The position numbers and the translations under genes were made by a program. 42,657 nucleotides of DNA from a virus (taxonomy: Duplodnaviria; Heunggongvirae; Uroviricota; Caudoviricetes), in IMG/VR virus record IMGVR_UViG_2541047850_000006, positions 1 to 42,657 of that record, one strand, 5' to 3'. Below are positions 2,561 through 38,962 of this stretch, one piece after another; the stretch's first letter is position 1, and the number at the start of each line of letters is the position of its first letter. Below the pieces are notes generated by a model. That model did no database searches, was not told where the DNA came from, and worked only from the letters and a program-made list of their open reading frames with translations.

Positions 2561-2635
2561 ACCAACTCCTAGCTAACAGATGAAAGTATTTTTACAGAAA
2601 GATAAGTAATCATATACTTATTTTAAAGGTGATTG

Positions 2636-3889
2636 TTATGATAGAGCCTTAATGCCCAAAACCTTGCTTTGTAACTCCAACTGCTTGGTATACGGTTTTG
2701 CCCGATAATAGGCTTTGATAATTTGTTCTGGCGTTGCACCGCCCGGGTCGAGTCCTTCCTCACCCAAACACGCAACTTTGACATTAAGACCGATACTGGT
2801 CAGTCGCCTAGCTGCGGGCATAGTGTTGCGTATAGCTTGCTTTTCACTATCCCACATCATGATCACATTACGTAACCCACGCGCCTTGAGCGTCAGGAAC
2901 GCGCCTAACTGATCTTCTGCATCCTGAGTGGTGTTGCCAGATAGATGCATCCCGAACGTTCCTATTGGTTCCACGTAATCACGTAATGTTTCTTCATCAA
3001 AAATAGCTCGTTTAACCCCCATAACATCGAACGCCCCCTCACAGACAACTACAGTCTGTTTGCCGACCGCATTATGGCCGTTGTAGAGAAACTTACCTGA
3101 AGCTGGAAGTTGCATAGGAAAGAGGTAGCGGCGTTCTGCTGTACCGGTAATGTCTCGTCCCTGAAATGTCTTCATTACCCCATCCAGATCGTAAATCGGT
3201 ATCAGTATTCGCATATCGAATATCTGCCCTTTAACCTGATCTGTATACGGATCTACATAAGCGTGCTTGCCTTCGACGCAGTATCGTAGGTCAAAATACT
3301 TTGCCATTTCAGGTGATATGTTTCGTTCAACCAGATAGTCTGGAAGACGGCCATCTATAGGAAGCTCGTAATGACGAGGGAGTGCAACTGGCCCCTCTAA
3401 CTCGACTGTGCTTGCAAGCACTAGCTCTTCTTTCTTTGGTGCCCACCCCTGGGAAAGAAGGGCGTTCTGCACATATTCCTCGAACTGTCGTCGTGATTTA
3501 CCGCTGTAGTGCTTGAGGAAGACCAGCTTATTGAACTGAATCTCTTCGGGATGATCACCAGCGAAGCATTTGCCGACGCCACTGGTCAGATTGAAATATA
3601 CCTTCCAGTTGGAGCTGCCGCATACCGGACACTCCTTGATATTCACTTCACGACCGCGAGCACTCACACCTCCACGTCGATAAACGATACCTTCAGTATC
3701 CAACCATTGTTCAAAATCTAATTCGGCAATTAGCTCTTTCAGCTCGCTCACGATAATTCCACTTTTAACAGGCAATATTATGACCAACATAAATGTTGAT
3801 ATAACATAAAGGCTCATGTGTTTTTCTTTTGTGGTTTGGCAAAAGAAAAGTTGTTTCACCAATGAATCAAGCGTGGAGGTGTTCTCCAC
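2636..3889 (-). CDS. DNA primase (zinc-binding domain + TOPRIM), T7 gp4 primase-domain-like; N-terminus probably over-extended (likely ATG near 3817)
   Basis: CPVCGSS...C..GDH zinc-ribbon-like motif; VVVCEGAFDVMG and MMWDSEKQA TOPRIM-like acidic motifs; the track start is GTG inside a hairpin at 3870-3892. Confidence 0.75.
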   Translation of the reverse strand: MENTSTLDSLVKQLFFCQTTKEKHMSLYVISTFMLVIILPVKSGIIVSELKELIAELDFEQWLDTEGIVYRRGGVSARGREVNIKECPVCGSSNWKVYFNLTSGVGKCFAGDHPEEIQFNKLVFLKHYSGKSRRQFEEYVQNALLSQGWAPKKEELVLASTVELEGPVALPRHYELPIDGRLPDYLVERNISPEMAKYFDLRYCVEGKHAYVDPYTDQVKGQIFDMRILIPIYDLDGVMKTFQGRDITGTAERRYLFPMQLPASGKFLYNGHNAVGKQTVVVCEGAFDVMGVKRAIFDEETLRDYVEPIGTFGMHLSGNTTQDAEDQLGAFLTLKARGLRNVIMMWDSEKQAIRNTMPAARRLTSIGLNVKVACLGEEGLDPGGATPEQIIKAYYRAKPYTKQLELQSKVLGIKALS

Positions 3890-3900
3890 GCTTATTTTTT
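3870..3900. terminator. Stem-loop (9-bp stem AGCGTGGAG/CTCCACGCT) between helicase and primase genes; followed by TATTTTTT on the plus strand
   Basis: Inverted repeat read directly; the U-tract is strong only for plus-strand (antisense) transcription and weak for the minus strand, so it may be an attenuator or an antisense terminator. Confidence 0.4.
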
Positions 3901-5239
3901 AGGTAACGTCTAAGATTCGCTCAATGAAGCGCATTTGTTCGAGGTTTTGTTTAACGCGAATGCTGATCCCTCCCTGTTGGTTACGTGAACCGGCAAAGTA
4001 GAGACGAGCCTCTCCTTTCGCTTCTTCTTCTTCGGTTTTGTTGATCGTTATTACCAGGTCAGCAATACGTACTTTTTCGATGTTGTCGGCAGCGTGCATC
4101 ATTGTGGCAACTTCTGACGCGCCACCTTCACGGTTTGTCTGCGATGCCGTGATCCCAGCAACGTTATGCTTGTCATAAAGAGCACGTAAATCGGTGTAGA
4201 TACTACGAATGTTGGCGCGATCATCACGAAGGTCATAACTGGCACGCATCAAATCTGCGTAGTCGACAACAACCATGTCAGGCACCATGCCGTTGGCTTT
4301 CATGCTGTTAAGCATACGGTCCAGATCTGCCGGTGACATACTTCCTGACGGACGCTCAACCACCCACAAACTACCAATCCCCTTCGTGGCTCCCAACTCT
4401 GCCAACTTACGGTGAACCTGATCGCGCCGTTCCACCAGCTTGGACATTTCCGTCTCCGACAATCTTGCATCAAAACGGTCAGATAAAATGGTGGTGTGAA
4501 CCTCCAGCGAGAGATACAGAACATTGTAGCCAGCAAGCGTTGCGTTTATGGAAAACTCACCCATTGCGGTCGATTTACCGGATTTAGCGAACCCCATGAA
4601 GAGCACCATTTCACGCTTCGCCCAGCCTTTTTGGTACAGCAACCTATCGAGCAGAGGGAGTCCAGTTGTAATGCTGTTTGGCACATACTCCTCTGAAGCC
4701 TCATATTCACGCGCTTTCAATCGCTCACTTGCGGAGGTGTAGTAGTCATAGATTCCGGTCGCTTCGTTCGATCCAATCTGCTGAACCTTGGCCATGATTG
4801 CCATCGCCCCCTGAAAGTCGCCCTTCTCTTTCAGTTCAGCAGCCTTAATCAGAGCATCATCAAACGCTACACTTTTTGCGAAGGTTGATACCTGGTCAAC
4901 CATGTACGAGGTATCGGACAATTTTTCTGCAAGAATGCGCTTAAACGCAGCAACAACATCGGCGAATAGTTCCTCACGGATAGTCTTATCGCGTTTCGCA
5001 CGCTTAAGCATATCCAGAATTGCAGATGAAGAGGGCGCGCTCTTGTACATACGGTAATAGCCCGAAACCATATTAACCAATATGGCATTGGCCGCATTGG
5101 CAAATTGGCTAGGCACAACCAGATCTCCCGCACGAGTAAGAAACTCGTGATCACGACAAAAATATGCCGTCAGTCTGTTCTGGAAATCTTCATCAAACTC
5201 TTCGGACAGCCCGCGTCCTGTATGGCAAAGTTCGGTCAT
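3899..5239 (-). CDS. Replicative DNA helicase, DnaB/RecA-fold (T7 gp4 helicase-domain-like)
   Basis: Walker A GFAKSGKST, Walker B MVVVDYADL, QTNREG region; ATG start with AAGGAAA SD. Confidence 0.8.
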   Translation of the reverse strand: MTELCHTGRGLSEEFDEDFQNRLTAYFCRDHEFLTRAGDLVVPSQFANAANAILVNMVSGYYRMYKSAPSSSAILDMLKRAKRDKTIREELFADVVAAFKRILAEKLSDTSYMVDQVSTFAKSVAFDDALIKAAELKEKGDFQGAMAIMAKVQQIGSNEATGIYDYYTSASERLKAREYEASEEYVPNSITTGLPLLDRLLYQKGWAKREMVLFMGFAKSGKSTAMGEFSINATLAGYNVLYLSLEVHTTILSDRFDARLSETEMSKLVERRDQVHRKLAELGATKGIGSLWVVERPSGSMSPADLDRMLNSMKANGMVPDMVVVDYADLMRASYDLRDDRANIRSIYTDLRALYDKHNVAGITASQTNREGGASEVATMMHAADNIEKVRIADLVITINKTEEEEAKGEARLYFAGSRNQQGGISIRVKQNLEQMRFIERILDVT

Positions 5240-6032: not shown

Positions 6033-6137
6033 CTGGTAGGTAGTTACTTACTTATTACAATGAGCGGATGATAGCGACTGGTGGCAGTTTTTGGAAGTGG
6101 AAACGAAAGGGAGTTGTTCTGGTTGTGTCTTTTAAAA

Positions 6138-8319: not shown

Positions 8320-9096
8320 TTAGTGGTTGGTAAACCTGGCATCAAATGTTGTAACGCCCACTTCAATGTGGCGGTCTTCTTTGGAGATGATGGTGAGAAT
8401 CTGACTAGATGGGTCTATGCTGACAGCCATAGGGTTCCAGTGACGTAACTGAGCCTCTCTGTTCAATAGCAGCGCATCCCACGGTTTGACGCCATTCTGC
8501 CCAATACCACCCTCAACAAGGACATCTATAAATTCTTTATTTAAATTGTCATAGATTTGGACACGCCCGACCAGAAGCATACCGACCGCCCAAATTCTGG
8601 CACCGTAAACCGTCTGATGGTCATCACATACCACATGGTCATGCCAATTGAGAAGGAAATTGTAAACTCTTCTAGCAAGTCCCTTTTGTTCCTTTGAAGG
8701 GGTTACAAATGCCCCTTTGATCTGGACACCAAGGTGAGAGCCTTTTTGTGAGCGAAACTGGAAACGCTTGTAGACGAACCTGGCAATCTGAATGCCGTCA
8801 TCATCTTCTTGTTCATCACCAACTAACTCACGAACACTATGAACTATCTCTGCTTCTGAATACCCCTGCTCGTCAAGATCCATTGCATGTTCTTGAAGCC
8901 AATCTGCATCATGGTCGCCTACAAATGACACTGTCAAACAGTAATCATAATTAGACCCGATCAAAGACCACTCTGTGAGCCGTAAAACAGAAAAATCAGA
9001 GTTAACCATGTAGCCAACTCTGATTTTCTCTCTTGCTTCACATTCAGGGAAATCTGACAGTACTTTTGAATACTCTGCTATGAATGATGGTGACAT
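8320..9096 (-). CDS. Hypothetical protein (258 aa)
   Basis: Track ORF, ATG start abutting the stop of 9097..9495; has its own terminator; no confident domain (a GDHDADW segment is only weakly suggestive). Confidence 0.5.
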   Translation of the reverse strand: MSPSFIAEYSKVLSDFPECEAREKIRVGYMVNSDFSVLRLTEWSLIGSNYDYCLTVSFVGDHDADWLQEHAMDLDEQGYSEAEIVHSVRELVGDEQEDDDGIQIARFVYKRFQFRSQKGSHLGVQIKGAFVTPSKEQKGLARRVYNFLLNWHDHVVCDDHQTVYGARIWAVGMLLVGRVQIYDNLNKEFIDVLVEGGIGQNGVKPWDALLLNREAQLRHWNPMAVSIDPSSQILTIISKEDRHIEVGVTTFDARFTNH

Positions 9097-9495
9097 TTAG
9101 TTAGCAAGCCGCATATCCGTAGATGAATCCAGTTTTGCTATTTTAACATCTACGCGGTATTTATCTTTGATAAATTTAGCTATTTTGCTTTCAATCTCAT
9201 AGAAAGCATCCTGTTCACAACGCACAACATCGGGAAACTGTTTTTCTGGCTTAACAAGAAAACGTAACCGATTGTTGAGCACCATCATTTCTGCAAACAA
9301 TTTGATGGTAAACTTGCCTTCTTCAACGTCACTTTTAAGGTTAACGATGAAACGCTGATCCTTAAGCATACCCGGTTTGTTCATTTCACGAATTTGGAGC
9401 GAGTCATTCCAATGCCGCAACGGAACCGATGCGATCATCTTGGTACAGTCTCTTATCGTCTGAATAGAACGAGATGCGTTAAGCGCAGTATGCAT
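9097..9495 (-). CDS. Hypothetical protein (132 aa)
   Basis: ATG start with strong AAGGTGG SD; 174-bp intergenic region upstream. Confidence 0.5.
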   Translation of the reverse strand: MHTALNASRSIQTIRDCTKMIASVPLRHWNDSLQIREMNKPGMLKDQRFIVNLKSDVEEGKFTIKLFAEMMVLNNRLRFLVKPEKQFPDVVRCEQDAFYEIESKIAKFIKDKYRVDVKIAKLDSSTDMRLAN

Positions 9496-9669
9496 GTTTC
9501 CACCTTAGCCGGTAATAACTTTATGTCATAGCGGCGACCTTGTCGGTTTAGAGGCTACGAGTATGCGTCGATTTATTAAAACAAGGTATGATTTACTTGA
9601 CATCCATGCTTCAAATCTACCTTGTGCTCTAATAATATGCAAATTTTATGTTAGAAAATTCCGCTTTTA

Positions 9670-9978
9670 TTATGGCACTTTTCTGCCCCATCCACACAAT
9701 CGCTCCCCTATCATATTGTGAAAAAGTACTTCCCTTTCAGTCTCTTCGGTCATGAGATCATCACGGCTGATGTATAGCGGTGTAGCCGCATCGCAGAAAA
9801 GCACACCAGAGGATTGAGGCTTAATCACGCAACCACTTATTGTGCAACTCATGATGAACAGTAGAAGCATCTTTGCGCCGTAACTCATCAAGCGTTTCAT
9901 TTTTGACATCCACTGTGCTTTGAAGTCGTTTCCTGTCTTCCTGTTTTGCCTTCTCTTCCATTGCTCGTCGCGCCGCAT
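9670..9978 (-). CDS. Candidate o-spanin (outer-membrane lipoprotein), probably starting at an internal Met near 9909
   Basis: Internal MKRLMSYGAKMLLLFIMSCTISGC resembles a lipoprotein signal with lipobox ISGC; the ORF overlaps the 3' end of the i-spanin candidate in another frame. Confidence 0.4.
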   Translation of the reverse strand: MRRDEQWKRRQNRKTGNDFKAQWMSKMKRLMSYGAKMLLLFIMSCTISGCVIKPQSSGVLFCDAATPLYISRDDLMTEETEREVLFHNMIGERLCGWGRKVP

Positions 9979-10072
9979 TTCCGCCCATCGTGTAAGCGCC
10001 GACCAGAACGAAAAGAACGGCAGCCAGAGTAATCAAAGCAACTTTTAGCTTTATCATCAGGCTACCTAGCAT
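9821..10072 (-). CDS. Candidate i-spanin (N-terminal TM + charged coiled coil)
   Basis: Hydrophobic LKVALITLAAVLFVLVGAY followed by an ARRAMEEKAKQEDRKRLQ-type helical region; located after the lysin candidate. Confidence 0.5.
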   Translation of the reverse strand: MLGSLMIKLKVALITLAAVLFVLVGAYTMGGNAARRAMEEKAKQEDRKRLQSTVDVKNETLDELRRKDASTVHHELHNKWLRD

Positions 10073-10073
10073 A

Positions 10074-10793
10074 TTAGGCCATCCCTTTCTGGTGTTTTCT
10101 TACCTGCGACCAGGCAATGAATCCTGCCACAACAATAGTGGCAATACCGAAGATGATGCGTACTGTATCCCCACTAGAGATATGACCTTGTGCTTTATCC
10201 ATAGCAGCGGAAACCTGCGGCATAACATCGGCCAGCTGCGCCAGACCAATACCTGCTGTAACAGTTGCGCCTGCTGTTTCTTTAGTTACAGGAACAGCCT
10301 TCACGGTTTTCACCGGCTTAACGACTCCAGCTCGACGCAGACCTTCCTCAATAACTTCTGCCGCATACCAGGTGTTCAGCGTTTTTAGCGGACCTCGCCC
10401 ATTCTCATGGCGAATGATTGCCTCAACCAAAGGTCGAAGGATGTCGTAATCATGCAGATCGATGATCATGTCTGCGGTTACACCAACGGCTTTAGACACC
10501 TCATTAATGTAGGCGTCAGTATTGTTTTCATTCGGCGGTGCCCAACGTTCAATAACTTCACGAATGGTATCGATACTTGAGCCGTCTTTTGCGCGACGTT
10601 TGTCGTGGTAGGTAATTAGAGTCACCGCCAGCGCACGAATCCCCCAAACAGGGTCTTTAAACGTGCAAAAGCGCGGTTCGTCTGGATTCGCAACCAGACC
10701 TTGCCACGGTGATCCTTTATCCAGATTACCGGGGTTATTATTACGAATGCCTCTCGGAGTCTTCATCCTTGATCTCCTGTTATTGCAGTCCAT
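10074..10793 (-). CDS. Putative cell-wall hydrolase / endolysin candidate with C-terminal hydrophobic helix (likely start at ATG near 10766)
   Basis: Position between membrane proteins and spanin candidates; AGGAG SD precedes the internal ATG (MKTPRGIRNNNPGN...); C-terminal IIFGIATIVVAGFIAW segment; the enzymatic family is not identified. Confidence 0.4.
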   Translation of the reverse strand: MDCNNRRSRMKTPRGIRNNNPGNLDKGSPWQGLVANPDEPRFCTFKDPVWGIRALAVTLITYHDKRRAKDGSSIDTIREVIERWAPPNENNTDAYINEVSKAVGVTADMIIDLHDYDILRPLVEAIIRHENGRGPLKTLNTWYAAEVIEEGLRRAGVVKPVKTVKAVPVTKETAGATVTAGIGLAQLADVMPQVSAAMDKAQGHISSGDTVRIIFGIATIVVAGFIAWSQVRKHQKGMA

Positions 10794-11124
10794 TTTTTAC
10801 GCCATACGCGGCTAACCCCAAAAGCAGTGCGGTAATAATGAACGACGTTATTTTAGATACAATGTCGCCAAAGAACCCACTGGAGATGGAATCTAACCGG
10901 TTAAGGAGTTTGTCCAGATTAGAGTGTTGAATACTATGTTGCGCAGGGGTCATGTCACCAAAGTAGGTTTTAAGCTGGTCGTTGACCTCTTGGCCAATTT
11001 CTTCTCGTAGCTCTTTACCTAATTTGCCAACAACTTCCCTAGCAACGATCGCGGCAATGCGCTCAACTTGCTCTGTTGTCACGCTCGCCATCTCGTTCGA
11101 CATATTTCCTCCATGAAAAGCCAA
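10780..11124 (-). CDS. C-terminally anchored membrane protein, lysis-associated (holin/antiholin candidate); likely start at ATG near 11103
   Basis: GGAGGAAAT SD before the internal ATG; a single C-terminal TM (FIITALLLGLAAYGV) after a soluble N-domain. Confidence 0.4.
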   Translation of the reverse strand: MAFHGGNMSNEMASVTTEQVERIAAIVAREVVGKLGKELREEIGQEVNDQLKTYFGDMTPAQHSIQHSNLDKLLNRLDSISSGFFGDIVSKITSFIITALLLGLAAYGVKNGLQ

Positions 11125-11164
11125 ATCGGGATGGCGGATTTATATCACATTTTATCTTTTTTAT

Positions 11165-11184
11165 ATAGGTATGCACTTACCTAT
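11165..11184. promoter_or_regulatory. 20-bp palindromic motif ATAGGTA-TGCACT-TACCTAT upstream of the lysis genes
   Basis: Perfect 7-bp inverted half-sites with a 6-bp spacer; the same architecture recurs at 2602, 6036, 14260, 27556, 30182 and 38943. Confidence 0.55.
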
Positions 11185-11283
11185 CTGTAAATAACCTTAA
11201 ACACCAACAATAAATTACCTCAGAACATCTCTCTTTATATTTATTACCTTCTTTGCGTAAGCTATATCTCAGTTAATCTTATA

Positions 11284-11568
11284 TTAAATAAAAATATATA
11301 ATAATGTGCACGCTAAAAGTGGAATCGCAAAATCCATCAGGCTTGCCACATCCCATGCACGTGGATCAAAACCGCCCCACCACGGCATATTCATTCGCTT
11401 GCCATGCCCGAACATTTCAATCCAGCGATATTCTGCCTGGGTGTGTTCACGCGCAATGAAGAACGTACAACCGGCTATCGCCCCGTAAGCCCAGTTTCCG
11501 GTAAAAAGACCAGCCAGTACCTGCACCGCCACGGCACAAAGCGCATGAAGTATCGACGTGATATCCAT
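11284..11568 (-). CDS. Small three-TM membrane protein (class I holin candidate)
   Basis: 94 aa with three hydrophobic segments; ATG with AAGGA SD. Confidence 0.4.
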   Translation of the reverse strand: MDITSILHALCAVAVQVLAGLFTGNWAYGAIAGCTFFIAREHTQAEYRWIEMFGHGKRMNMPWWGGFDPRAWDVASLMDFAIPLLACTLLYIFI

Positions 11569-11577
11569 CTGCTATCC

Positions 11578-11856
11578 TTAAAACCACTCCCTGAGCGGGC
11601 GCTCTGGTGTAACCACCCACTCACGGAACACGGAATCATCAAATCCATCGTCAAGAAGACGGATATTAACAAAGTACCCTTCGTTTCGCGTGTATTCTGG
11701 TTCTCCGTCATCAGAAACATCTGTCTCCCTGAACGTAAAACCAATCTCATCAACCAGAACGGCATTCTGCAGCTCTTCGTCCTCTTCCCAGTTAAGTTTC
11801 CTGAGAAATGCCCTGAAATCTGCTTTATCACTGAAACGCAACGTGAAATCTCTCAC
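11578..11856 (-). CDS. Small acidic protein (92 aa), possibly a tail-fiber accessory
   Basis: GTG start overlapping the tail fiber stop (GTGA) with GGGGAGG SD; function unknown. Confidence 0.4.
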   Translation of the reverse strand: MRDFTLRFSDKADFRAFLRKLNWEEDEELQNAVLVDEIGFTFRETDVSDDGEPEYTRNEGYFVNIRLLDDGFDDSVFREWVVTPERPLREWF

Positions 11857-14216
11857 TCCACAACCTCCCCAAGCTGCGCATCTGTTAGCTCTTTATGCCA
11901 GAGACGAAAATTCCTCACATGCCCAAATAAATGGCGTAATCCTGCTGTAGTTTGTCCACCAATGCGAATGGTTGCTGTACTCCGGATATATTCCCATTTG
12001 GTTTTAGTTTCGCTGCTTAACTTACCGTTACTGACTACACATGTGGACCGTTCGGACTTTACCCGCATACCAATAAGCATTTTTTTCAGCCCGGCATTTT
12101 CATTTATTCGTCGGTCTGAACCACCTATATCGCAATACGGAAAACCGTCGTACCCACCTGATGAACCAAACCCCATTACGATCCCCGCTCCGGTTTGATG
12201 ACCGCCGGTATCAAAAACACGCGGCGCTACATTTGGCGTTTTATACCAGTTCTTATGTACCTCACAAAAAACCGTAAAAGGAAGATTATAAAGATTATTC
12301 TTAATCGGAACTGTAACCATATCGCTTGCCCGCGTCGCCGCCGTCGTTCCTGATATAATAAAAGATGATACACACGAACCATCCTCAACCTGAGGGGTAG
12401 CCAGATAAATATAGTCACCAGATTCAACGACACCACCTTTTTTTGGTGCGTATTGTATTGCAGAGGTTATGTAAGTTTCTTTACTTGCTTGAATCGTTGC
12501 CTCTGCAAAAATCCAGCCCGTAACTTCATCTTTGTTAACTCGTGCGGTGAGCCTGTCGGCAGCTACACCGGTGATTTCAACCAATAAAGACCGCGTATTA
12601 ACAATGGCATATCCAAGATTAGATGAAGCGCTGCCATTGAAGGCTTCAAACCTGATCTTTAACAGGAGTTCCAAATCCGTTTTAAATCTGCACGATGTCG
12701 TCACGCACTTATTATCGCCTGATACATCGACAGCCCCCGAGGTTGAAACTACTGCCATATTAAGGGTTGTACTTTGCCCAATTAATGATTCATTACAAAC
12801 AAACTTTCCATAAGTAAAACCAAAACCATCAGTTCCAACCTCAGCGACATTCATATTTGCAGATTTACCCCAAGAAGCTGGAGTTGCTGAATTTAACATG
12901 TAGTTGGTTCGCTGACCTTCAATCAATAAACCTTCTTTTTCAAATCGTGGCTCATTAATTTCCGCCGTTTTCAGTTCGCCAGATTTGTTGATATATGTTG
13001 CCGTTGATGCGCGACTGAAATTAACCTGTTTATCACTGGCAACCTGAACCACATTATCACCAATCTTCACTTTTTTATAACCCGGAGAATAGCCCGTAAT
13101 CATATCCAGCGAATCATTAAAGGGTATCCACACATCCGGCAGCGGCTGTAAAACATATCTGTACGGCTCTGCTGTCTGGTTTGCGTATTCTCTGGCAGCA
13201 TCTTCACTTGCTTTTGCTGCCGTCTGGCTTGCTGCCGATGCTTTCGCCGAGTTCGCCGCCGCTGTTTCGCTCACCTTTGCGTTGGCTTCACTGGTTTTTG
13301 CTGCTTTTTGACTGTTAGCTGATGCAGTGGCAGAAGCAGCCGCCGCGCTTGCAGAACTGGCTGCGGCACTCTCGCTTTGGGCCGCTGCATCCTGACTGCT
13401 TTTCGCCGCAGTTTCACTGGCTTTGGCATTCGTTTCGCTGGTCTTCGCTGCCGTCTGGCTGGACTTTGCGTTAGTTTCACTCGTCTTCGCAGCTTTCTGG
13501 CTGTTAGCCGCGGCAGTTGCTGATCCGGCAGCTGAAGTCGCAGAACCAGCTGCGGCACTCTCGCTTTCGGCTGCCGCCGCCTGGCTGTTTTTTGCTGCGG
13601 TAGCGGAGTTGGCGGCAGCACTCTGACTCGATTTTGCAGCTACCTCGCTATTTTTCGCATTAGTTTCGCTGGTCTTTGAAGCTGTCTCACTCGCTTTTGA
13701 GTTAGTTTCTGATTTTTTGGCCGCTGTTGCGCTCGCTGCCGCCTCTTTAGCTTTTTGTGCAGCGGTGTTAATTATGGGAGTATTTTCTTTATACCATTCT
13801 AGGTTCTCATTGTGCTCATTAACGATCTGCGTAAGGGATTTTACGGTTAATTCCGTGCCATCTTCACGCTCAATTGTTATTTTATCCACAGCAGTCAGCC
13901 AACTACGCATCATTTTTGAATCGGCTGACATGCGAGACATAAGCGCAGTAAAACGAGCACTAAATTGGGTCAAATCACCTTCATAGGTCGTAATTATTCT
14001 GCACGGAACATTTGTTTGGGTGCTGCCACCGTAGGCTTCAACAAGAGTTAACGAAGTGTCACTCTCGATTGATTTTATTTCATATAACTTATTATCGGGG
14101 CCAATCAATATCATACCTGGAAGGACGCCGTTCGTCGTCACTCCCCAGGCTGTGCCTGTTCCCACTACAGTTTTATTTCCTTTAGTGAGATTTATTGTAC
14201 CTTCCCTGTACCACAT
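11853..14216 (-). CDS. Side tail fiber protein (lambdoid Stf-like) with Ala/Ser/Thr-rich KSETNAK-type tandem repeats
   Basis: Repeat block ...AAKKSETNSKASETASKTSETNAKNSE...SQKAAKTSETNAKSSQTAAKTSETNAKASETAAKSSQ... matches my recollection of lambdoid Stf repeats; ATG with SD; located after J. Confidence 0.75.
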   Translation of the reverse strand: MWYREGTINLTKGNKTVVGTGTAWGVTTNGVLPGMILIGPDNKLYEIKSIESDTSLTLVEAYGGSTQTNVPCRIITTYEGDLTQFSARFTALMSRMSADSKMMRSWLTAVDKITIEREDGTELTVKSLTQIVNEHNENLEWYKENTPIINTAAQKAKEAAASATAAKKSETNSKASETASKTSETNAKNSEVAAKSSQSAAANSATAAKNSQAAAAESESAAAGSATSAAGSATAAANSQKAAKTSETNAKSSQTAAKTSETNAKASETAAKSSQDAAAQSESAAASSASAAAASATASANSQKAAKTSEANAKVSETAAANSAKASAASQTAAKASEDAAREYANQTAEPYRYVLQPLPDVWIPFNDSLDMITGYSPGYKKVKIGDNVVQVASDKQVNFSRASTATYINKSGELKTAEINEPRFEKEGLLIEGQRTNYMLNSATPASWGKSANMNVAEVGTDGFGFTYGKFVCNESLIGQSTTLNMAVVSTSGAVDVSGDNKCVTTSCRFKTDLELLLKIRFEAFNGSASSNLGYAIVNTRSLLVEITGVAADRLTARVNKDEVTGWIFAEATIQASKETYITSAIQYAPKKGGVVESGDYIYLATPQVEDGSCVSSFIISGTTAATRASDMVTVPIKNNLYNLPFTVFCEVHKNWYKTPNVAPRVFDTGGHQTGAGIVMGFGSSGGYDGFPYCDIGGSDRRINENAGLKKMLIGMRVKSERSTCVVSNGKLSSETKTKWEYIRSTATIRIGGQTTAGLRHLFGHVRNFRLWHKELTDAQLGEVVE

Positions 14217-14309
14217 TTATCCTTTGCTCCTAGATATGGTGGGCGTTCTATGCTCACCATTAAGTTAGTACCTACCTATTTTTACAGAAATGATTATTTT
14301 TTTCCACAA

Positions 14310-27555: not shown

Positions 27556-27575
27556 TTAAGTATATACTTACCTAT
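27556..27575. promoter_or_regulatory. 20-bp palindromic motif TTAAGTA-TATACT-TACCTAT upstream of the major tail gene
   Basis: Same half-site architecture as 11165-11184. Confidence 0.5.
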
Positions 27576-30181: not shown

Positions 30182-30201
30182 ATAGGTAATTACATACCTA
30201 T
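30182..30201. promoter_or_regulatory. 20-bp palindromic motif ATAGGTA-ATTACA-TACCTAT between the capsid stop and its terminator
   Basis: Perfect inverted half-sites; same family as 11165-11184. Confidence 0.5.
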
Positions 30202-32106: not shown

Positions 32107-33663
32107 TTAATTTTGTCCGCTTTCTTGGACAGCACTGCGATCATAGGTAAGTACAGACTTATTTTCAAGAGCATTAAGATCATTTTTTGGCGGAAATTTC
32201 AAGAGATCTTTATCAAATTCCTTTTTCATCGCTTCAGTGATATTAGGGAAAATCTTCTCAATCAGCATTTCCATCTGCTGACGACGTACAGAGTCCGGTG
32301 CCTGAAGTAACGATAGTTTCTCCGCAACAGAAAATTCATCAGTAAGCCCGCGAATATCAAAACTTTCTGGATATGCTATTAGAGAGTGATCTTCGTCCAG
32401 ATCTACCCCCATCCATTTAGCAACCAGTTGCATGATTTGGCGTTCAGCCCTTTCAAGACGATCTGCTTTTGTGACAAGCAAGCTATTTACACGCTGGAAG
32501 TCATACATTTTTGCAGCACCAGATGAATTATCTATTCCCTGTGCGTTGTCCTGCTTCGTTCGCTCGCCAGCTACACCAACTGAATGGTAGATTTCGTTAA
32601 TCACCGTCTTAATCGTAGTGATGATCATCTGAGCTTGTTTAGGGTCTGGTGATAAATAAAACGGCTGGTTTCCACCTTCAGAATCGTAGGTAAAGACACG
32701 TTTTGTCCCCATTTCAAGAACTTTAGTGTGATTATCATCACCAGGTAAAAGTGACTGCACCGGTATGGCCAACTGGCTAAATGTCTGATCCTGAATAATG
32801 GCATCAAGGTTTGACAGATAGTTTGCAACCGCACGATCAAGATAAGCGATATCATCGATCAACGATGGGCTGAAATACGGTGATTCACTTTCTCCAATAC
32901 AATCAACAGGAAACACAGGAACTACGCCCAGATTATGCTCGTCGCTATCCTCTAAAATAACTTTTGCCTGACGACGAGCTGCTCCACTAGCGCCCTTCTT
33001 CACTTCCTCACGGAACAGATACCACTCGTTTTGTGTCCAAAGACGATAACGTTGGTATTCCTGACCTGTAGAAGTAAAAGGATCTGCGTCATCACGAGCG
33101 ACTTCCACAATTAACGCCCATAACATATTCCCGTCGTCGTCCCATGCCACATCCAGCATTTGCTGCGGTGAAATCCAGTAGGCGTAGGCACGAGCATCTT
33201 TCTTTTTCTCGTCAGCGACTGATTCAACATCACCACTCATCGTGCTATCGACAACAACCCAGATACGACCGTATATAGACGATTGCAAATCAATCGCGGC
33301 CATAAATGAATCAATAGAGGCATTCTGGCGAGTCGCTCGTTTCCAGAAATTGCGGATCTGCTCTGGCGATTCTTCAATATTTCGATGAATATCTTCTTTA
33401 AAAAGATACTTGTTAATGAGATTTACCACTTCACGGGTGTGGTTGAATCGATAAGCACGCTCAACTCGCTCCTTAAATTCCTGGTCGCCCTCTTTAAAGT
33501 ACCTAAATATATTTTCGCTAAACCAACCACGCCCGCCAGCATAGGTGCTAGCGAGAAAGTCCCAATGTTCTTTTTTCTTTTCGTATTCCGGGTGGCGTCG
33601 CGCCACCAGATCCTTAATTTGTTTGTCGTTCAATTCCATTTGAATACCCTTAAATAACCACAC
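32107..33663 (-). CDS. Portal protein candidate (518 aa)
   Basis: Size and position directly downstream of the large terminase. Confidence 0.7.
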   Translation of the reverse strand: MWLFKGIQMELNDKQIKDLVARRHPEYEKKKEHWDFLASTYAGGRGWFSENIFRYFKEGDQEFKERVERAYRFNHTREVVNLINKYLFKEDIHRNIEESPEQIRNFWKRATRQNASIDSFMAAIDLQSSIYGRIWVVVDSTMSGDVESVADEKKKDARAYAYWISPQQMLDVAWDDDGNMLWALIVEVARDDADPFTSTGQEYQRYRLWTQNEWYLFREEVKKGASGAARRQAKVILEDSDEHNLGVVPVFPVDCIGESESPYFSPSLIDDIAYLDRAVANYLSNLDAIIQDQTFSQLAIPVQSLLPGDDNHTKVLEMGTKRVFTYDSEGGNQPFYLSPDPKQAQMIITTIKTVINEIYHSVGVAGERTKQDNAQGIDNSSGAAKMYDFQRVNSLLVTKADRLERAERQIMQLVAKWMGVDLDEDHSLIAYPESFDIRGLTDEFSVAEKLSLLQAPDSVRRQQMEMLIEKIFPNITEAMKKEFDKDLLKFPPKNDLNALENKSVLTYDRSAVQESGQN

Positions 33664-38278: not shown

Positions 38279-38943
38279 ACCAGAGCCTCACCAGCGTTTT
38301 CCATTTCATTGCCAGTATTAATTGCCTGGTCTTTGATGATGTTTTTTATGGTTTCTGCAACGCGATCTGACGCATCGAAGGTTACTTTGAAGCGCATGGT
38401 CTGATGTTCCGCACCGACACGTTCGGTTTTCTCTCGTTTGTCGGTATCGACAGGCTCATCACTACCACGAGACAACGCCTCCAGTGCTTCAAGGTCAATT
38501 GCCGCCTCTTTTGCTAAAACCATCGAGATTTCGTCGTCATACGGGGCGATTTCAGACAGTTGATAGTCAAGTTCTGACTGAATTTCTTCAATGAAGCGTT
38601 GCAATGCGATTTGGTCGTCTTCACCGTATCGCTCGTTGTCCACCAGTGACATCTGTTTTGCCACGACATCGCTAATTTTGCCCACAGAAAGCACAGGAAC
38701 CGTTGAAATTCCTTGCTCAATAGCAGCACGCCAGCGATGTTCGCCGCCGAGGATTTCAAAAAATCCATCTTCAAGCTCACGAGCCAAAATTGGCTTAAAA
38801 AAGCCCAATTTTTCGATAGAACCTTTCAGTTTTTCGAAATTCTGCGCACCAACCGAATTGGTGTTCCAGGTATTCGGGCGAAGGTTGGCAACATCAACCT
38901 GCAAAATCGTGATTTTTACGTCCATTTTATTGCTACAATCCAC
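38245..38943 (-). CDS. ParB/Srx-fold domain protein 1 (likely start at ATG near 38925)
   Basis: ParB N-terminal-domain-like ...FEILGGEHRWRAAIEQGISTVPV...; first gene of the operon; palindromic motif immediately upstream. Confidence 0.65.
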   Translation of the reverse strand: MDCSNKMDVKITILQVDVANLRPNTWNTNSVGAQNFEKLKGSIEKLGFFKPILARELEDGFFEILGGEHRWRAAIEQGISTVPVLSVGKISDVVAKQMSLVDNERYGEDDQIALQRFIEEIQSELDYQLSEIAPYDDEISMVLAKEAAIDLEALEALSRGSDEPVDTDKREKTERVGAEHQTMRFKVTFDASDRVAETIKNIIKDQAINTGNEMENAGEALVWLVDYYKERM

Positions 38944-38962
38944 TAAGTAATCACTTACTTAT
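38943..38962. promoter_or_regulatory. 20-bp palindromic motif CTAAGTA-ATCACT-TACTTAT in the divergent region between the ParB-like operon and the SF2 helicase
   Basis: Same half-site architecture as 11165-11184. Confidence 0.5.

Follow-up and report, generated by a model that had tools for sequence, protein, structure and literature searches.

We analysed a stretch of 42,657 nucleotides (nt) from a virus of the Caudoviricetes (IMG/VR record IMGVR_UViG_2541047850_000006, positions 1 to 42,657; this whole stretch is referred to as the window) and found that it carries the late lysis operon of an SSU5-like phage-plasmid, consisting of genes for a holin-slot protein, an endolysin, an i-spanin (inner-membrane spanin) and an o-spanin (outer-membrane spanin). 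The four-gene cassette is a variant of a known lysis type, and the feature that distinguishes it is the uncharacterised, tail-anchored protein family (phrog_5093) that partners the endolysin. According to the overall reading we favour, to which we assign a probability of roughly 0.7, lysis by this SSU5-type operon would involve a tethered endolysin whose C-terminal module makes the membrane lesion, a 107-residue protein acting as timing or release factor, and the two spanins, while a 94-residue hydrophobic protein encoded upstream would not be a lysis gene.

Results

A conserved lysis operon in an SSU5-like phage-plasmid

The window region is 99.8% identical to Escherichia phage PhiR41_1 (108 kb) and 81-93% identical to phage Cyrano and Salmonella phage SSU5, and this close identity indicates that the window is part of an SSU5-like phage-plasmid. 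The same four genes are annotated in Cyrano and SSU5 as holin, endolysin and Rz/Rz1-like spanins. All genes of interest are located on the minus strand, and every open reading frame (ORF) named in a preliminary description of the window, which had proposed an atypical lysis cluster in this region, is present. The order of transcription is a tail fibre of 787 residues, proteins of 92 and 94 residues, a gap of 159 nt, and then the cassette encoding the proteins of 107, 230 and 83 residues and the lipoprotein. Spacing inside the cassette amounts to 1-13 nt and Shine-Dalgarno sites are present. Pfam and NCBIfam searches returned zero matches for any cassette protein, and each protein matched a PHROG family with E between 1e-22 and 1e-89. 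Since the four-gene order was also kept in 76/76 related SSU5-like viral contigs with enough flanking sequence, the cassette is not a chance pattern of ORFs. Among 5,426 complete E. coli genomes the cassette was found in 214 (about 4%), always on plasmids of ~108-113 kb, on which RefSeq labels its genes 'membrane protein' or 'hypothetical protein' (e.g. NZ_CP104116.1, 69705-71138). SSU5-like phage-plasmids often carry resistance genes.

The endolysin belongs to the Enc34/M4Lys family

The second gene of the cassette (10074..10766, minus strand) encodes an endolysin of 230 residues (MKTPRGIRNNNPGN) of the Enc34/M4Lys type, composed of a catalytic domain of the PHA02564 family, a linker and a C-terminal membrane module. 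The complete ORF (10793..10074) would give 239 residues. The likely start is the ATG at 10766, which is preceded by AGGAG and agrees with the annotations of Cyrano and SSU5; the 239-residue reading from 10793 is not supported by the homologues. A phmmer search against the Protein Data Bank (PDB) matched the crystal structure of the Enc34 endolysin (7q47_A) at E = 1.5e-54 over residues 10-160 of the 239-residue form, and the alignment to 7Q47 together with residue mapping assigns the catalytic domain to residues 4-150 (10317..10757, minus strand). The protein also matched phrog_873, annotated as 'endolysin', at E = 6e-89, and full-length alignment with gp34 of the chi-like phage FSL SP-088, membrane module included, gave 56% identity. 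Three residues of Enc34, the substrate-positioning Trp79 and Tyr95 and the catalytic Glu131, were reported to be catalytically important when its catalytic domain was solved (PMC8943055). They correspond to W75, Y86 and the catalytic glutamate E121 of the 230-residue protein, all of which are invariant across 29 homologues. The AlphaFold2 (AF2) model built on these 29 homologues has a predicted local distance difference test score (pLDDT) of about 90 in the catalytic domain and exhibits an all-helical fold resembling the alpha-lobe of lysozyme. Foldseek returned 7q47_B and 7q47_A as top hits of the model (E = 8e-17, target-normalised TM-score 0.81). Judged by this homology, the 230-residue protein is a glycosidase-type peptidoglycan hydrolase of the Enc34/M4Lys family, and the profile search called for in the preliminary description, which had put it forward as a hydrolase candidate, proved the candidate right through the match to 7Q47.

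The preliminary description had also considered that the protein might not be the endolysin at all. This alternative is refuted by the 7Q47 match together with the lack of competitors: no second copy of the catalytic domain was found in the window, where a profile scan of every ORF of the element was not made, and no other endolysin is annotated in the whole 108-kb genome of Cyrano. The N-terminus, MKTPRGIRNNN, is hydrophilic and lacks an export signal, and the hydropathy profile contained no hydrophobic segment in the first 150 residues, where the weakly hydrophobic N-terminal domain of an endolysin of the signal-anchor-release (SAR) type would be sought. The proposal that C-terminal anchoring departs from both soluble and N-terminal SAR endolysins therefore stands.

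A match covering at least 80% of the endolysin was found in 182 phage-database records, and other phages encode the catalytic domain by itself as part of internal virion proteins or tape-measure proteins. Full-length homologues of ~230 residues were retrieved from a large protein collection in phage-plasmids of Cronobacter, Klebsiella, Serratia, Photorhabdus, Xenorhabdus and Providencia, and also in Pasteurella and Alcaligenaceae. The Enc34-type catalytic domain is covered by no Pfam or NCBIfam model. As a side observation, Aeromonas phage phiWae15 (locus L004, 1008-2015) carries an annotated RNA-directed DNA polymerase gene ~0.5 kb upstream of its Enc34-type endolysin; neither a chi-type nor a phrog_5093 slot gene could be recognised ahead of this endolysin.

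The endolysin carries a conserved C-terminal membrane module

Hydropathy, hydrophobic moment and predicted helices delineate a membrane module at the C-terminus of the endolysin (10089..10244, minus strand), which comprises a weakly hydrophobic amphipathic helix (residues 175-194), an SSG loop, a transmembrane helix (residues 199-226, core 203-222) and the basic tail RKHQKGMA. The Kyte-Doolittle profile peaks at 2.07 over residues 213-231 of the 239-residue form, directly followed by this tail, and in the AF2 model a flexible linker leads into a weakly hydrophobic helix (175-194), after which comes a long hydrophobic one (199-226). Homologues from chi-like phages, Aeromonas and Pasteurella show conservation of the module sequence, in which the polar residues G174, Q177, S198 and G199 are kept as well. 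Based on its sequence and predicted helices, the C-terminus is a conserved membrane module made up of an amphipathic helix, a transmembrane helix and a basic tail.

Endolysins with a C-terminal transmembrane domain (TMD) were first noted in 2019 in Salmonella phage Siskin, together with a proposed new class of holins with an N-terminal TMD (PMC6498227). M4Lys of phage BSPM4 is muralytic and lyses E. coli alone, without the neighbouring gene and despite Sec inhibition; truncation in the C-terminal region abolished lysis and the TMD alone was bacteriostatic (PMC7143992). For both M4Lys and Enc34 ORF39 the catalytic domain is muralytic, and toxicity or lysis was seen with the full-length protein only and was holin- and Sec-independent (PMC7143992, PMC8943055). 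The Enc34 authors stated that no known translocation mechanism accounts for export of an N-terminal domain via a C-terminal signal, and that the C-terminal arrangement 'appears to be limited to' Chivirus and relatives (PMC8943055). LysAP of Acidovorax phage AP1 is a further endolysin with a C-terminal TMD, whose module is needed for localisation and lysis (PMC8879335). In the model of that study a pinholin acts together with a C-terminal SAR, and the partner protein HolAP binds LysAP and accelerates lysis (PMC8879335). Slot proteins of the chi type and of AP1 are non-toxic when expressed alone (PMC7143992, PMC8879335), and co-expression of the chi-type ORF_37 of BSPM4 slightly slows lysis by M4Lys, which its authors blame on expression levels (PMC7143992).

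With Siskin (PMC6498227), M4Lys (PMC7143992), Enc34 (PMC8943055) and LysAP (PMC8879335) published, C-terminal anchoring is not a new feature. The preliminary description had called it unusual and suggestive of a different release mechanism: the anchoring is indeed out of the ordinary and implies that release follows a non-standard route, but descriptions of the class had already appeared between 2019 and 2022. The endolysin of the window shares full-length homology at 55-59% identity with Enc34 ORF39, M4Lys and the Siskin endolysin and has the layout of chi-like endolysins, namely an all-helical catalytic domain with the Trp/Tyr/Glu residues, a linker and a C-terminal module with basic tail. 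The cassette likewise resembles chi-like cassettes in that the endolysin gene lies between a holin-slot gene and short overlapped spanin genes, with an o-spanin of the same family. In contrast to chi-like phages, which are virulent siphoviruses of 59 kb, the element is an SSU5-like phage-plasmid of ~108 kb, and a class that the literature confines to Chivirus and its near relatives is here abundant among the phage-plasmids of many Enterobacterales and also beyond this order. The AP1 system, HolAP-LysAP (PMC8879335), is alike in its very similar endolysin module and in having a single-TMD partner encoded directly upstream; it differs in that the catalytic domain of LysAP is lysozyme-like (GH24) and unrelated to that of the window endolysin.

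We also observed that the modules of LysAP (locus L095, 1129-1812) and of the window endolysin (10089-10244) both contain an amphipathic stretch, a loop of small residues, a transmembrane helix and a basic tail of the form W..V(K/R). The presence of like modules on the unrelated catalytic domains of LysAP and Enc34-type endolysins suggests, from the sequences compared, either a transferable module or convergence.

A predicted tail-anchored protein of the phrog_5093 family occupies the holin slot

The first gene of the cassette (10780..11103, minus strand; GGAGGA before the ATG at 11103) encodes a predicted tail-anchored membrane protein of 107 residues, which matched phrog_5093 at E = 7e-68, a family listed by PHROG as function unknown. 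The sole hydrophobic segment spans residues 85-102 (ITSFIITALLLGLAAYGV; 10798..10851, minus strand; Kyte-Doolittle mean 2.04) and is followed by a tail of five residues, KNGLQ. The preliminary description had assigned a C-terminal hydrophobic helix both to this protein and to the endolysin, and the hydropathy profiles agree. It had further stated that holins have N-terminal TMDs, which is an over-generalisation, although the 107-residue protein with its C-terminal TMD only does differ from the slot proteins of the described systems. The chi-type slot protein and HolAP have a single TMD at the N-terminus, and this order is reversed in the 107-residue protein. No significant alignment (E = 10) was obtained by BLASTP against the chi-type slot protein gp35 of FSL SP-088 (phrog_7686), and no sequence similarity to HolAP of AP1 was found; in this the cassette departs from the chi-like and AP1 cassettes alike.

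An exhaustive profile search for phrog_5093 yielded 58 representative clusters, and the family layout and conservation were read from 26 full-length representatives of about 95-140 residues (21-55% identity). These share an acidic helical N-terminal domain, a juxtamembrane motif, one C-terminal TMD and a tail of 1-19 residues; the net charge of the N-terminal domain is -4 in the 107-residue protein and ranges from 0 to -7 across the family. The most conserved segment (residues 47-72, YFGDMTPAQHSIQHSNLDKLLNRLDS; 10888..10965, minus strand), predicted to be cytoplasmic and juxtamembrane, contains an invariant H-x3-H. It corresponds to the family motif FGDM..P..H...H.R...LL, in which G49, H56 and H60 are invariant in the 26 representatives, and conservation reaches 2.6 bits per column in this motif versus 1.9 bits in the TMD. 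Since export of a charged N-terminal domain of 84 residues without a signal peptide is implausible, the 107-residue protein should be tail-anchored, with the N-terminal domain and both H56 and H60 in the cytoplasm. AF2 predicted four helices with low confidence (pLDDT 47), and this model was not used for a fold search.

Neither the 107-residue protein nor the 26 family members matched any Pfam or NCBIfam family or a holin family of PHROG, and all 26 members matched phrog_5093 only. When compared with known classes of lysis proteins, the 107-residue protein shares with canonical holins (classes I-III) that it is a small membrane protein with one TMD encoded next to the endolysin, 13 nt upstream of its start; it has neither a curated family match nor a highly charged C-terminal tail. 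It also lacks the N-terminal TMD and charged cytoplasmic C-terminal domain of the single-TMD holins of the Chi/Enc34/AP1 type, for which a 'class IV' (N-out, C-in) has been proposed, as well as sequence similarity to the chi-like slot protein and HolAP. The closest resemblance, in design only, is to releasins, with which it would share a tethered acidic cytoplasmic domain, a minimal periplasmic part and a place in a lysis cassette. The releasin gp25 of phage Mu (DUF2730) has 99 residues, of which four are periplasmic; its TMD is N-terminal and its cytoplasmic domain acidic. Gp25 is harmless alone, is needed to free a membrane-anchored endolysin with a short basic cytoplasmic segment, and has family members that are paired with other endolysin types (PMC9239132). 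Like gp25, the 107-residue protein is ~100 residues long and encoded in a lysis cassette, and it is predicted to be membrane-tethered with an acidic cytoplasmic domain and few periplasmic residues. Unlike gp25 it has a C-terminal TMD, and neither this protein nor any of the 26 family members matched DUF2730 at E up to 0.01. A further difference from Mu is that the C-terminus serves as the anchor of the partner endolysin, whose catalytic domain is probably cytoplasmic. The 107-residue protein is the only part of the cassette outside the literature that we found, and a literature search on the SSU5-type cassette or on tail-anchored holins returned nothing.

The phrog_5093 family heads lysis cassettes of several types

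In SSU5-like viral loci that reach the endolysin, the gene of the 107-residue protein lies 13-17 nt upstream of the endolysin gene without exception (78/78), and two spanin genes follow in 76 of the 78. Homologues directly upstream of the endolysin were also found in phage-plasmids of Xenorhabdus (61% identity) and Providencia (52% identity). In both of these loci (L009 of Xenorhabdus, 3237-4545; L010 of Providencia, 3231-4621) we observed two extra genes without TMD (about 105 and 220-227 residues) that separate the endolysin from the spanins, and in the Providencia locus an overlapped spanin pair at 4228-4621; no clear spanin pair was found with simple criteria in the Xenorhabdus locus. Within the cultured-phage database the family was present in SSU5-like phages only, plus two doubtful matches.

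The context of distant family members was drawn from four loci (L012, L013, L014 and L094), with one locus obtained in the genome scan. The L013 homologue precedes a Peptidase_M15_3 endolysin and a two-TMD protein of 72 residues. L014 and L094, the latter on an alphaproteobacterial contig, encode after the homologue a holin-like protein with three TMDs, a phrog_669 endolysin with hydrophobic N-terminus, an i-spanin and a lipoprotein o-spanin, and in L012 the homologue is followed by two small membrane proteins. These four contexts tie the family to lysis cassettes whatever the endolysin type, and outside the SSU5 group its members sit beside other holin-like genes.

The last two genes encode an overlapped two-component spanin

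The i-spanin (83 residues; 9821..10072, minus strand; phrog_1026 at 4e-23) starts 1 nt past the endolysin stop codon and consists of an N-terminal TMD (about residues 6-27, Kyte-Doolittle 2.44) and a charged helical domain predicted to be periplasmic. The o-spanin lipoprotein (9670..9909, minus strand; phrog_1275 at 9e-23) is read out of frame from an ORF extending over 9978..9670, with a likely start at 9909 or 9900, of which 9909 gives a precursor of 79 residues. Its signal sequence and lipobox (MKRLMSYGAKMLLLFIMSCTISG|CVIK; lipobox ISG|C at nt 9829-9840), with no Asp at position +2, precede a mature protein of 53 residues with two further cysteines. Both phrog_1026 and phrog_1275 are Rz-like spanin families. 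The 3' end of the i-spanin gene doubles, in another frame, as coding sequence for the o-spanin signal, with an overlap at nt 9821-9909 of up to 89 nt, and this overlapped arrangement is kept in related loci. The family matches, the lipobox and the 89-nt overlap confirm the earlier suggestion of partially overlapping spanin candidates with an out-of-frame lipoprotein.

The i-spanin is weakly similar to the chi-like i-spanin of 84 residues, and the o-spanin is 40% identical to that of Aeromonas phage phiWae15, which has the same endolysin type. The SpaninDB catalogue (Kongari 2018, PMC6139136) groups the SSU5 o-spanin with those of Chi, Enc34, FSL SP-088 and iEPS5 as the Chi family and lists the SSU5 i-spanin as a singleton of the overlapped class. 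The architecture is that of P2 LysB/LysC, with an i-spanin carrying an N-terminal TMD and an o-spanin whose gene begins within that of the i-spanin, out of frame with it, and runs past its end; compared to lambda Rz (about 150 residues) the i-spanin is very short. By family membership and gene arrangement, the last two genes are an overlapped two-component spanin with nothing atypical.

The upstream 94-residue protein belongs to a tail-fibre module

The genes transcribed ahead of the cassette encode the tail fibre of 787 residues (14216..11853), the 92-residue protein (11856..11578) and the 94-residue hydrophobic protein (11568..11284; phrog_1443), all on the minus strand. The last of these displays two clear hydrophobic segments and one weaker one and had been counted, as a three-TMD protein, among the members of the lysis cluster. 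This assignment did not hold. The trio is found at 84-99% identity in many lambdoid phages (e.g. ev243 gp23-gp25), which have their own lysis cassettes elsewhere; the 94-residue gene is present in only 2/79 SSU5-like viral loci; and the corresponding site contains nothing in Cyrano and Cor plus other (outer-)membrane-protein genes in SSU5. A role of the 94-residue protein as holin or other lysis gene is ruled out by the lambdoid trio, its occurrence in 2/79 loci and its absence in Cyrano and SSU5, and as far as the genomic comparison goes the protein is a variable accessory of the tail-fibre module. We further observed that the entire module at 11284-14216 is common to lambdoid phages and absent at this site in Cyrano and SSU5, and such a shared tail-fibre module shows that phage-plasmids and integrated lambdoid prophages exchange host-range modules.

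Downstream of the cassette and on the same strand (8320-9495), two conserved genes of unknown function encode proteins of 132 residues (phrog_2594) and 258 residues (phrog_3307). At this position Cyrano carries a toxin-antitoxin pair of the KacT type, which marks the site as another variable slot.

Candidate regulatory signals

The palindromic motif that the preliminary description had reported for the intergenic region downstream of the 94-residue gene is present at 11165..11184 as a perfect palindrome, ATAGGTA-N6-TACCTAT, within the 159-nt gap and ~60 nt upstream of the first start codon of the cassette. Allowing up to two mismatches, six sites were found in the window (2602-2621, 6036-6055, 11165-11184, 27556-27575, 30182-30201 and 32143-32162) versus 0.05 expected, and weaker sites are located at 14260-14279 and 38943-38962. 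The sites follow a 20-bp consensus, ATA(G/A)GTA-N6-TAC(C/T)TAT, and are intergenic, mostly 40-70 nt upstream of minus-strand genes, so that the recurring palindrome may be a candidate shared late promoter or operator element. The copy at 30182-30201 is flanked by a stop codon on one side and a strong terminator-like hairpin on the other, a placement that fits poorly to a simple promoter role. A sigma-70 scan of the 159-nt gap found no promoter, the gap folded as RNA no better than shuffled sequences (z = +0.7), and an Rfam search of the window gave no match. About 35 nt past the o-spanin stop codon, an imperfect A+T-rich hairpin followed by UUUU (9573..9635, minus strand; minimum free energy -17.9 kcal/mol, z = -3.1 versus shuffles) is a candidate terminator of the lysis operon, an assignment that is tentative because a simple terminator scan missed it.

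Discussion

We propose that the endolysin accumulates with its catalytic domain in the cytoplasm, where it would be tethered to the inner membrane by its C-terminal module with the basic tail inside. At a set time the membrane would be compromised and the catalytic domain would get to the wall, after which the spanins would fuse the inner and outer membranes. The endolysin's own module probably contributes the membrane lesion, since the homologues M4Lys and Enc34 ORF39 lyse E. coli alone and only with the module intact. The 107-residue protein would be a tail-anchored, cytoplasm-facing factor for timing or release, comparable to a pinholin or to the Mu releasin, rather than a large-hole former.

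Several observations argue for such a tethered factor and against a pore. Conservation peaks in the H-x3-H motif rather than in the TMD, all 26 representatives combine an acidic N-terminal domain with a short tail of 1-19 residues, separate multi-TMD holin-like genes accompany the family in L013, L014, L094 and L012, the slot proteins of the chi type and of AP1 are non-toxic alone, and Mu gp25 represents the same design mirrored. That the protein is a lysis factor at all is supported by its constant position directly upstream of the endolysin, including the Xenorhabdus and Providencia elements, and from distant members that head cassettes with an M15 peptidase (L013) or a phrog_669 endolysin (L014, L094).

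A number of points weigh against this proposal. The functional data all come from homologues (~56% identity) or analogues of the SSU5-type proteins, and the lysis seen with homologues alone occurred under strong overexpression, so that infection may differ. Published studies disagree on how the endolysin module is oriented, some favouring two helices (N-in/C-in) and others one helix (N-out). Apart from the spanins, the SSU5-type cassette encodes no small membrane protein other than that of 107 residues, as would be expected if this were a true holin, and the AF2 model of the 107-residue protein is of low confidence (pLDDT 47). The slot protein accelerates lysis in AP1 and slightly delays it in BSPM4, so that the effect may go in either direction, and the sample of distant genomic contexts is small (four loci).

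The most serious alternative, which we consider possible though on balance unlikely, is a canonical holin-endolysin system, in which the 107-residue protein would be a true holin or pinholin acting through oligomers of its TMD, and the endolysin module would serve as an anchor only, i.e. a C-terminal SAR freed by depolarisation. The protein is indeed encoded first in the cassette, small and predicted to insert into the membrane, with no other small non-spanin membrane protein beside it; the annotations of SSU5, Cyrano and pJN2-26 name it a holin; and the AP1 study proposes just such a combination of pinholin and C-terminal SAR, with HolAP binding LysAP and accelerating lysis (PMC8879335). On the other hand, the protein shows no similarity to the holin families of Pfam, NCBIfam or PHROG, its conservation is greatest in the cytoplasmic motif instead of the TMD, and it has no charged C-terminal tail. 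Distant members sit next to separate multi-TMD holin-like genes, M4Lys lyses without its slot protein (PMC7143992), and the conserved polar residues in the endolysin module exceed the needs of an anchor.

The 107-residue protein could instead be an inhibitor of the antiholin type that delays hole formation by the endolysin module, or by the holins of other cassettes, and so prevents premature lysis. We regard this as improbable. The slight slowing of M4Lys lysis upon co-expression of ORF_37 (PMC7143992) points in this direction, as do the separate holin-like genes beside family members and the conserved cytoplasmic motif, which is of an interaction type and fits a binding role. However, the BSPM4 authors explain the delay by expression levels, lysis is accelerated by the slot protein of AP1 (PMC8879335), and transfer of function from the chi and AP1 proteins is weak since they are not homologous to phrog_5093. 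Very unlikely, finally, is an accessory without any lysis role (e.g. a membrane protein for superinfection exclusion or conversion): the region downstream of tail-fibre genes is a known accessory slot (Cor and outer-membrane genes in SSU5, the 92- and 94-residue genes in the window) and PHROG lists no function for phrog_5093, but strict adjacency to the endolysin (13-17 nt) is maintained in 78/78 loci while the upstream accessory genes vary, and distant elements have the family at the head of lysis cassettes with three unrelated endolysin types.

A bolder reading can be formulated, which we hold to be speculative and doubtful at present. In this case phrog_5093 would be a new class of tail-anchored, cytoplasm-facing lysis factors that act via the H-x3-H motif on membrane-embedded lysis proteins. 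SSU5-like phage-plasmids would have no dedicated holin, the endolysin module would be the hole-former in what amounts to a natural holin-endolysin fusion, and the 107-residue protein would set the timing. By analogy, phrog_5093 would be a mirror-topology functional counterpart of the Mu releasin or of an antiholin.

Beyond the slot protein the cassette is ordinary, a standard lysis cassette of known type, and its interest is accordingly modest. Its annotation can be improved directly, because RefSeq names the genes only 'membrane protein' or 'hypothetical protein'. For the question of how a C-terminally anchored endolysin without an N-terminal signal gets to the wall, the SSU5-like phage-plasmids provide a natural comparison in which chi-like endolysin and spanin types are combined with an unrelated and oppositely oriented partner.

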